Positions 62,013-64,000 of a DNA stretch of 64,000 nucleotides are shown here, piece by piece. The first letter of the stretch is position 1; each line of letters opens with the position of its first letter. The DNA comes from Escherichia coli (GTDB lineage Bacteria > Pseudomonadota > Gammaproteobacteria > Enterobacterales > Enterobacteriaceae). The stretch lies in NCBI RefSeq assembly GCF_041886205.1, contig NZ_CP169029.1, one strand, 5' to 3'. The notes under the pieces are model-generated. The model was not told the origin of the DNA, made no database searches, and was given only the letters and a program-made list of their open reading frames with translations. Both the position numbers and the translations under genes were made by a program.

Positions 62013-62100
62013 TTTTGAACATTTCAGGCTATTTTTCTCGCGTTAGGTTCCCGCACAGGTTCCCACGTTTTATGGGAACCCGAAATAACGAGGTCGTGTA

Positions 62101-63198
62101 ATGGCGTACTATAACATAGAGAAACGACTAAAATCCGATGGCACACCACGCTATCGCTGTAATGTGATTATCAAAGAAAAAGGTGTTATCACTTACAGGG
62201 AAAGCAAAACATTCCCTAAACATGCTCATGCCAAAACATGGGGCACACAGAAAGTGATGGAATTAGATCTATATGGCATTCCATCATCAAATGCAGTTGA
62301 CGGACTTACAGTCCGTGACTTACTACACAAATATTTAAATGACCCAAATGCCGGAGGTAAAGCAGGCCGTACTAAAAGATATGTGCTAGAACTGCTTATG
62401 GATAGTGACATCTCCGCGATCAAACTATCTGAACTGACAGAAAATGACGTAATTGAACATTGCAGGCTAAGAAACAACGCTGGCGCAGGTCCAGCAACAG
62501 TCAGCCACGATGTTAGTTATCTTGGTAGTGTTCTGGATGCGGCCAAACCTGTATACGGAATTAATTACACATCAAACCCGGCGAAAAGTGCTCGTCCATA
62601 TCTACTTAAACTTGGTTTGATTGGTAAATCAAACCGTCGTAATCGTAGACCAGCATCTGATGAACTGGACATGCTCATTGAAGGCCTTCAACAACGATCT
62701 ACTCATAAATGCTCAAAAATTCCGTTCGTTGATATCCTCAAATTTTCTGTGTGGTCCTGTATGCGAATCGGAGAAGTATGCCGGTTACGATGGGAAGATC
62801 TCGACCAGGAACAAAAATCTATACTCGTAAGAGACAGGAAAGATCCACGCAAAAAGGAAGGCAACCACATGAAAGTAGCCTTGCTTGGGGAAGCCTGGGA
62901 TATCGTCCAACGACAGCCCCAAAAATCGGAATTCATTTTTCCATATAACAGCACTTCTGTTACTGCGGGATTTCAGAGAGTAAGAAGCAAATTAGGTATT
63001 AAGGATCTGCGATACCATGATTTGCGTAGAGAAGGGGCAAGTCGCTTATTTGAGGCTGGTTTTAGTATTGAGGAAGTCGCCCAGGTTACAGGGCATCGTT
63101 CATTAAACGTGCTATGGCAGGTATATACCGAACTGTATCCGAAATCTTTACATAATCGTTTTGAAGAGCTCCAAAGGAGCAGAAATAAGATCCCTTGA
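62101..63198 (+). CDS. Tyrosine-type site-specific recombinase (phage/island integrase), divergent from dusA
   Basis: 365 aa; C-terminal catalytic-domain landmarks visible: Arg in SCMRIGEVCRLRWEDL, HDLRREGASRL (H-x-x-R), GHRS, and the probable nucleophile Tyr in WQVYTELY. Confidence 0.85.
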   Translation: MAYYNIEKRLKSDGTPRYRCNVIIKEKGVITYRESKTFPKHAHAKTWGTQKVMELDLYGIPSSNAVDGLTVRDLLHKYLNDPNAGGKAGRTKRYVLELLMDSDISAIKLSELTENDVIEHCRLRNNAGAGPATVSHDVSYLGSVLDAAKPVYGINYTSNPAKSARPYLLKLGLIGKSNRRNRRPASDELDMLIEGLQQRSTHKCSKIPFVDILKFSVWSCMRIGEVCRLRWEDLDQEQKSILVRDRKDPRKKEGNHMKVALLGEAWDIVQRQPQKSEFIFPYNSTSVTAGFQRVRSKLGIKDLRYHDLRREGASRLFEAGFSIEEVAQVTGHRSLNVLWQVYTELYPKSLHNRFEELQRSRNKIP

Positions 63199-63259
63199 CA
63201 CTGTTTATCCATACAGTTAAAAATAATACTGTATACAAACACAGTATAGAGGGACTTTT

Positions 63260-63508
63260 ATGCGTATTGAAATCTGCATAGCCAAAGAAAAAATGACTAA
63301 AATGCCAACCGGTGCTGTGGATGCGTTAAAGGAAGAATTAACCCGACGCATCAGTAAGCGTTATGACGATGTAGAGGTGATCGTAAAAGCCACCAGCAAC
63401 GATGGGCTTTCAGTTACACCTACTGCAGATAAAGATTCAGCTAAAACTTTTGTGCAGGAAACTCTGAAAGATACCTGGGAGTCTGCTGACGAGTGGTTTG
63501 TTCACTAA
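63260..63508 (+). CDS. DinI-family protein (SOS/RecA modulator homolog)
   Basis: 82 aa, [11 protein letters not shown]...[16 protein letters not shown]; resembles DinI in length and C-terminal ETWESAD-WFV motif as I recall it. Confidence 0.7.
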
Positions 63509-63534
63509 TTAGCACTATCGGAAGTTCACCAGCC

Positions 63535-63580
63535 AACCGCAGCACGTTTTTGCATACAACGTGCCTGCGGTTTTTCGAGA
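63535..63580 (+). terminator. Candidate rho-independent terminator after the dinI-like gene
   Basis: CCGCAGCACG...CGTGCCTGCGG hairpin followed by TTTTT. Confidence 0.55.
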
Positions 63581-63731
63581 CTATTCTGACCGTCATACTT
63601 ACACATCAACTTAGCGCCCATCCAGAGAAATTATCTTTTTTGCATTCCGAAGATTCAAAGAGTTAGCCTAATTTTCCAGATAGTTTTCTCGACAAATCTG
63701 AGGTATTTTGGTTATCGATATAGTGCTTTGG

Positions 63732-64000
63732 GGCTTTGTTGAATAAATCAGATTTCGGGTAAGTCTCCCCCGTAGCGGGTTGTGTTTTCAGGCAATACGC
63801 ACGCTTTCAGGCATACCTGCTTTCGTCATTTTGTTCAGCGCTCGTACCAGGGCCATAGCCTCTGCAACCTGACCATCGTAGTCACGCAGCGTCAGTGAAC
63901 CCCCGAACAGCTGTTTTACCCGGTACATCGCCGTTTCCGCTATCGAGCGACGGTTGTAATCTGTTGTCCATTTCCACCGCGCATTACTCCCGGTCATTCG
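63732..64000. mobile_element. End of an IS5-family (IS903-group) insertion sequence; continues beyond the window
   Basis: Terminal sequence GGCTTTGTTGAATAAATC at 63732-63749 matches the IS903-type terminal inverted repeat as I remember it, with a transposase C-terminus reading inward. Confidence 0.65.
63788..64000 (-). CDS. IS903-group transposase, C-terminal portion (5' part outside window)
   Basis: ...SIAETAMYRVKQLFGGSLTLRDYDGQVAEAMALVRALNKMTKAGMPESVRIA, ending ~40 nt inside the terminal inverted repeat. Confidence 0.65.
   Translation of the reverse strand, partial: RMTGSNARWKWTTDYNRRSIAETAMYRVKQLFGGSLTLRDYDGQVAEAMALVRALNKMTKAGMPESVRIA

Follow-up and report, generated by a model that had tools for sequence, protein, structure and literature searches.

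In the window (the whole 64,000 nt stretch of Escherichia coli contig NZ_CP169029.1, assembly GCF_041886205.1, that was analyzed), the final 2.1 kb form the integrase end of an E. coli lambdoid prophage that is common and already described, and nothing visible in them is new. Positions 61909–64000 are very probably the attL end, on the int side, of a temperate prophage of the lambdoid mEp460/1720a-02 type. The gene order at this end of the window is dnaB (57952–59367, minus strand), qorA, pspG and dusA (minus strand), followed by an 88 bp spacer and ORFs of 365 and 82 aa. All four of the features described in the original prediction, namely dusA, a divergent tyrosine recombinase, a DinI-like gene and the end of an IS903-like element, were found, and their interpretation as a DusA-associated element is supported. 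Alignment to K-12 is colinear from 5884 to 62015. On the same side of dusA, K-12 carries yjbM-yjbL-zur, and the integrase, DinI-like and IS903 genes are absent there, so the claim that these genes are foreign to the K-12 dusA neighborhood was borne out. The features referred to below are as follows.

60975–62012, minus strand: dusA, 345 codons, ORF intact (NCBIfam TIGR00742, 580 bits, above cut-off)
60975–61908, minus strand: host-derived part of dusA, from att alignments and K-12 comparison
61909–61916, no strand assigned: attL core and crossover, TCGAGCAT on the plus strand and ATGCTCGA in the dusA sense (dusA nt 97–104)
61917–62012, minus strand: phage-supplied 5' end of dusA, codons 1–32, from att alignments and K-12 comparison
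62013–62100, no strand assigned: P-arm spacer between dusA and int, 88 bp, with three copies of one 7-mer
62101–63198, plus strand: tyrosine integrase, 365 aa, divergent from dusA (Pfam PF00589, E 1e-20)
63201–63216 and 63229–63244, plus strand: LexA-box-like palindromes, CTGT-N8-ACAG, just upstream of the DinI-like start (pattern scan)
63260–63508, plus strand: DinI-like gene, 82 aa (NF007893, 73 bits, E 2e-20; PHROG 189)
63535–63577, plus strand: hairpin and U-run after dinI, a likely intrinsic terminator (-25 kcal/mol, z-score -3.4; this stability was reached by 0 of 200 shuffled sequences)
63732–64000, minus strand: right end of IS903B, with an 18 bp inverted repeat at 63732–63749 and the 3' end of the transposase at 63788–64000, which runs off the window

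A separate difference from K-12 lies far from dusA, at window 17214–17423, where about 6.8 kb of K-12 (4306822–4313662) is missing and about 200 bp is found in its place. The K-12 genes lost at this position are alsK, alsE, alsC, alsA, alsB and alsR, along with the 5' part of rpiB.

The element boundary within dusA

The foreign DNA had been taken to start at 62013, immediately outside dusA, but the att alignments place its start inside the gene. Three sequences were aligned, the attL of the window, the attP of mEp460 and the attB of K-12, and a four-way alignment added the attR of the E. coli genome NZ_CM171611.1. The window tracks K-12 up to TCGAGCAT and the phage thereafter, while the attR of NZ_CM171611.1 shows the opposite pattern. 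The 8 bp core is common to attB, attP, attL and attR; nt 1–96 of dusA are of the attP type, and from nt 105 onward the gene is of the host type. A 27 nt imperfect att repeat that contains the core spans 61909–61935, and it is here that attL is present, with the position of attR lying beyond the window. The GenBank record of phage 1720a-02 starts at window 61908, and homology to mEp460 starts at 61909. In comparison with K-12 dusA, 18 of the 96 nucleotides in nt 1–96 differ (19%), against 14 of 942 in the rest of the gene (1.5%), and the corresponding figures for the protein are nine of the first 30 residues and one of the other 315. The switch of att partner at 61909–61916 therefore sets the element boundary about 100 bp inside dusA, with codons 1–32 supplied by the phage. 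As judged from these alignments, dusA is here a host-phage chimera and the boundary of the island lies within the gene. The same dusA fusion occurs in the 1720a-02 prophage, where it was named phi-dusA' (PMC6328086).

Integration of phage 1720a-02 has been examined experimentally and occurs 100 bp into dusA; its att sites carry a 21 bp motif with a 7-base core, the phi-dusA' fusion is in-frame, and attP formation was lost in a delta-int mutant (Balasubramanian et al. 2019, PMC6328086). By the mechanism we propose for the window element, Int would recombine attP with the conserved 'SxAPMLDW' stretch of dusA, strand exchange occurring within ATGCTCGA (nt 97–104). Since a phage version of dusA nt 1–96 lies beside attP, integration would restore an intact gene by rebuilding an in-frame dusA at attL, and the native 5' end of dusA would stay behind, orphaned, at the distant attR beside yjbM, as is seen in relatives. 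Excision would require Int, and probably also an excisionase encoded near attR.

The integrase and candidate arm-type sites

Catalytic residues R222, H306, R309, H332 and Y342 were found in the integrase by sequence motif. In tblastn searches of phage genomes, the protein is 98.9–99.7% identical to the integrases of mEp460, 1720a-02, phiSTEC1575-Stx2k, Lys8385Vzw, SKA5 and PhiR40_1, approximately 68% identical to those of Yersinia and Morganella phages, and of lower identity to those of Vibrio, Pseudomonas, Burkholderia and Acinetobacter phages. NCBIfam gave weak matches of Xer/integron type, Pfam gave the generic PF00589 only, and a PDB sequence search with the integrase returned only remote matches to XerA/XerC.

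According to Farrugia et al. (2015, PMC4482086), DusA-associated integrases (DAI) are tyrosine recombinases with RHRH/Y residues, for which Rci is the nearest among characterized families. Hits were defined in that study by BLASTP with a cut-off of 1e-20, and phage mEp460 and Burkholderia phage BcepIL02 are named among them. The elements themselves adjoin the 5' end of dusA, have semi-conserved flanking repeats of 21 bp, and supply a new dusA 5' end (PMC4482086). The window integrase possesses the RHRH tetrad and the nucleophilic Tyr, and it is related in sequence to named members of the family, with pairwise identities of 98.9% to the integrase of mEp460 and 36% over the full length to that of BcepIL02 (E 1e-68). 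Its gene lies directly beside the 5' end of dusA, the two starting at 62101 (plus strand) and 62012 (minus strand) on either side of the 88 bp spacer, and the element is inserted inside the 5' end of dusA with a replacement 5' end that leaves the ORF intact. Judged by its sequence, it belongs to the DAI family, since every feature of the family that can be assessed in the window is present. The prediction that the integrase is DusA-associated thus held up, both in its identity to the mEp460 protein and in the expected junction structure inside dusA.

The placement of the integrase beside dusA might instead be coincidental, the enzyme belonging to another family and having a different target site. 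The weak Xer/integron-type NCBIfam matches and the generic PF00589 assignment would fit such a reading, which is refuted by the att partner switch inside dusA, and a near-identical integrase has been found experimentally to use dusA (PMC6328086); we regard coincidence as hardly conceivable. A recombinase of the Rci or Xer type unrelated to dusA was also considered as a candidate, and is ruled out by the att evidence.

The spacer between dusA and int carries GGTTCCC at 62046 and 62058, as direct copies 12 bp apart, and the inverted form GGGAACC at 62074. There are, then, three copies of this 7-mer within 35 bp of the spacer versus six in the 64 kb window, counted in both orientations. The attP of mEp460 has the same three copies, and on its other arm are GGTTCCC and GGCTCCC, 11 bp apart and some 50–60 bp from the core. 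In Yersinia phage YeP1, the integrase of which is 68% identical, the core TCGAGCAT and the layout of the repeats are kept and the repeat word has changed, to CAGCACCCC/TAGCACCCC with an inverted copy GGGGTGCTG. In the E. coli phages and in YeP1 alike, the int side has a pair of direct copies and a single inverted one, and the opposite arm has a second direct pair. The att-flanking repeats lie at 62040–62085 of the window, at 2748–2765 and 2946–2980 in locus L013, and at about 1225–1260 and about 1440–1490 in locus L027. A conserved layout, with a repeat word that co-varies with the integrase, is the pattern expected of arm-type integrase-binding sites, and the spacer 7-mers are likely candidates for such sites. 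Term searches of the DAI paper returned no mention of these att-flanking repeats (PMC4482086).

The DinI-like gene, the IS903B insertion and related prophages

The score of the 82 aa protein against NF007893 (73 bits) is below the equivalog cut-off of 111, and so the gene is named DinI-like and not dinI itself, although dinI is used below for the module it forms with int. In identical neighbors, PF06183 is found on the DinI-like gene. The two palindromes ahead of it overlap a promoter-like TTGACA at 63195, and the combination of two CTGT-N8-ACAG motifs with a promoter-like hexamer suggests that the gene is probably under LexA/SOS control; its product would then probably be an SOS-induced modulator of RecA. 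The pattern also matches window 49709–49724, which, by its position relative to K-12, is presumably the LexA box of uvrA/ssb. The hairpin after dinI was folded directly, as its loop exceeds 8 nt and it was therefore missed by a simple terminator scan.

Beyond the hairpin, the inverted repeat GGCTTTGTTGAATAAATC that begins at 63732 has one match in the window, with 0 expected, and over the 269 visible bases the identity to the IS903B copies of thousands of plasmids is 100%. NCBIfam identifies the last ORF as the C-terminal part of an IS5-family transposase. The element is inserted after ...ATAGTGCTTTGG (63731), in intergenic DNA downstream of the terminator hairpin. At the uninterrupted site in NZ_CM171611.1, the insertion point is about 47 bp upstream of the start of the SDH-protease gene. 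The length of the target duplication of IS903 is 9 bp, and the duplication expected here is GTGCTTTGG (63723–63731); a complete IS903B is about 1057 bp and is flanked by the 9 bp duplication. The IS would have arrived later than the prophage, in the gap that separates the dinI terminator from the gene after it, which in the closest relatives specifies an SDH-family protease.

A megablast search with 61900–64000 against 5426 complete E. coli genomes found the IS junction in none of them, the best match ending at 63731, and a 50-mer spanning the junction of dinI and IS903B had 0 exact matches in GTDB representative genomes and 0 in IMG/VR. In exact-protein look-ups with the integrase and the chimeric DusA, the IS was absent at all 20 of the places listed. 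Because the junction is absent from the collections searched, the continuation past the IS is extrapolated from relatives. The IS903B insertion is the only strain-specific feature of the element.

Of the 5426 complete genomes, the closest is NZ_CM171611.1, in which int-dinI and the next 220 bp are 99.8% identical to the window, up to 63731. It carries a lambdoid prophage of about 49 kb, with genes for a CI/LexA-like repressor, Q antiterminator, holin and lysozyme, as well as terminase, portal and capsid genes and a lambda-like tail. At its attR, about 49 kb from attL, is an orphan 105 bp fragment of the dusA 5' end, beside a yjbM homologue. Between the SDH-protease region and the tail-fiber accessory genes of this genome (23273–24644 of its locus, L001) is a stretch of about 1.4 kb that is unannotated and without a long ORF.

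More widely, the int-dinI module (at least 80% of its length) was found in 713 of the 5426 complete E. coli genomes (13%). Ten draft contigs with an identical integrase were listed of 23, drawn from the 23–24 blocks with the longest contigs out of 133, and all ten run dinI, SDH-family protease, DUF1353/DUF4376, tail fiber and gpJ, the tail genes being lambda-like. For the exact chimeric DusA protein, the index of the assembly collection points to 4442 blocks, and ten contigs were listed of 27 (again from the 23–24 blocks with the longest contigs). Lambda-like or Mu-like tail modules occur near the chimeric DusA among these ten places, and the slot between dinI and the tail genes is occupied by an invertase, a DUF4145 protein, a reverse transcriptase with a SLATT protein, or an acyltransferase. 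The slot beside dinI appears to be a hot spot for moron or defense genes. In GCA_013818065.1 (L021, 6384–8283), an RVT_1 reverse transcriptase and a SLATT_5 protein are found beside dinI, resembling a defense pair of the retron or DRT type. PADLOC gave no hit for Int, the DinI-like protein or the SDH protease of the relatives, and all three have PHROG families. Carriers of the int-dinI module are a common, mosaic prophage family. It had also been suggested that any undescribed system would most likely sit here; this found no visible support: published phages have the module, as do 13% of complete E. coli genomes. In the window, the slot after dinI starts with IS903B, and the DNA beyond 64000 might hold IS903B-associated cargo (for example, a resistance module) or an undescribed defense gene inside the prophage, but we consider this improbable.

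Given that islands other than phages, highly mosaic in their cargo, are found among DAI elements (Farrugia et al., PMC4482086), and that IS903B is typical of resistance plasmids, the element might be a dusA-specific genomic island with resistance or metabolic cargo that merely shares its integrase module with phages. Set against this are the phage structural genes present in every identical-integrase relative among those listed, and the 99.8% match of int-dinI and the following 220 bp to the prophage of NZ_CM171611.1, which make a non-phage island very unlikely.

A decayed stub carries more weight, though we still think it unlikely. By this account, int, dinI and phi-dusA' are what remains of a prophage lost largely or entirely, either through an adjacent deletion by IS903B or because copies of the IS recombined, and the IS would be followed by unrelated DNA or by core genes (yjbM, zur). 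Consistent with such an event, the IS begins exactly where the conserved int-dinI module gives way to other sequence, its junction occurs in no other genome searched, and IS-driven decay is seen in relatives: the prophage of NZ_CM171611.1 is interrupted by IS621 and ISCro1, and its crippling by these elements indicates that decay is common in the lineage. There is also GCA_001413755.1 (L024), where int-dinI lies beside non-phage genes. However, phage tail modules are kept beside dinI in 19 of the 20 related contigs listed, the window bears no sign of a deletion, and a simple insertion is the commonest outcome of IS transposition. Judged from the relatives, we expect with reasonable confidence that the prophage continues beyond IS903B.

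GCA_001413755.1 has the same DusA as the window, and its int-dinI-acyltransferase segment is followed directly by a fimbrial operon and not by phage genes, which might reflect either truncation to a remnant or a rearrangement of the dusA site.

The main value of these results is correct annotation, of a prophage (or what is left of one) at a hot spot that is well documented and is also used by Stx2-converting phages. Two points for annotation are that dusA is best recorded, on the att alignments, as a host-phage chimera, and that the island boundary is to be drawn inside a gene. Inactivation or truncation of the prophage may have resulted from the IS903B insertion, at which the assembly could also have a breakpoint.

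Comparison with known systems

Phage 1720a-02 (KF030445.1), described as phi-Stx2dact in Citrobacter rodentium (PMC6328086), has an integrase 99.2% identical to that of the window. Both share the order phi-dusA', int and dinI-like, with DNA that is 95.4% identical over 61908–63506, and in both the insertion is 100 bp into dusA, which is reconstituted (for 1720a-02, PMC6328086). They differ downstream of dinI, which in 1720a-02 leads directly to tail-fiber genes, whereas in the window about 220 bp of a different mosaic variant come first, followed by IS903B. The integrase of mEp460 (JQ182728) is 98.9% identical and its int-dinI arrangement is the same; the DNA of the two is 98.1% identical over 61909–63515, a region comprising the attP core, the P arm, int and the dinI-like gene. 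Unlike the window, mEp460 has no IS, and its sequence diverges downstream of dinI.

The DAI elements of Acinetobacter baumannii D1279779 and Pseudomonas protegens Pf-5, as described in the DAI paper (PMC4482086), have the same target as the window element, the 5' end of dusA, for which they supply a replacement. They also resemble it in their semi-conserved att repeats and in having the integrase next to, and divergent from, dusA (PMC4482086). Their integrases are distant relatives of the window protein, the one distant comparison made being that with BcepIL02 (36%), and their cargo differs, consisting of metal-resistance islands and other prophages (PMC4482086).

The IS903B copy of the window, a member of the IS5 family, is identical to the reference element over all 269 bases, the 18 bp inverted repeat included. 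It is a chromosomal copy inside a prophage, with one end visible.
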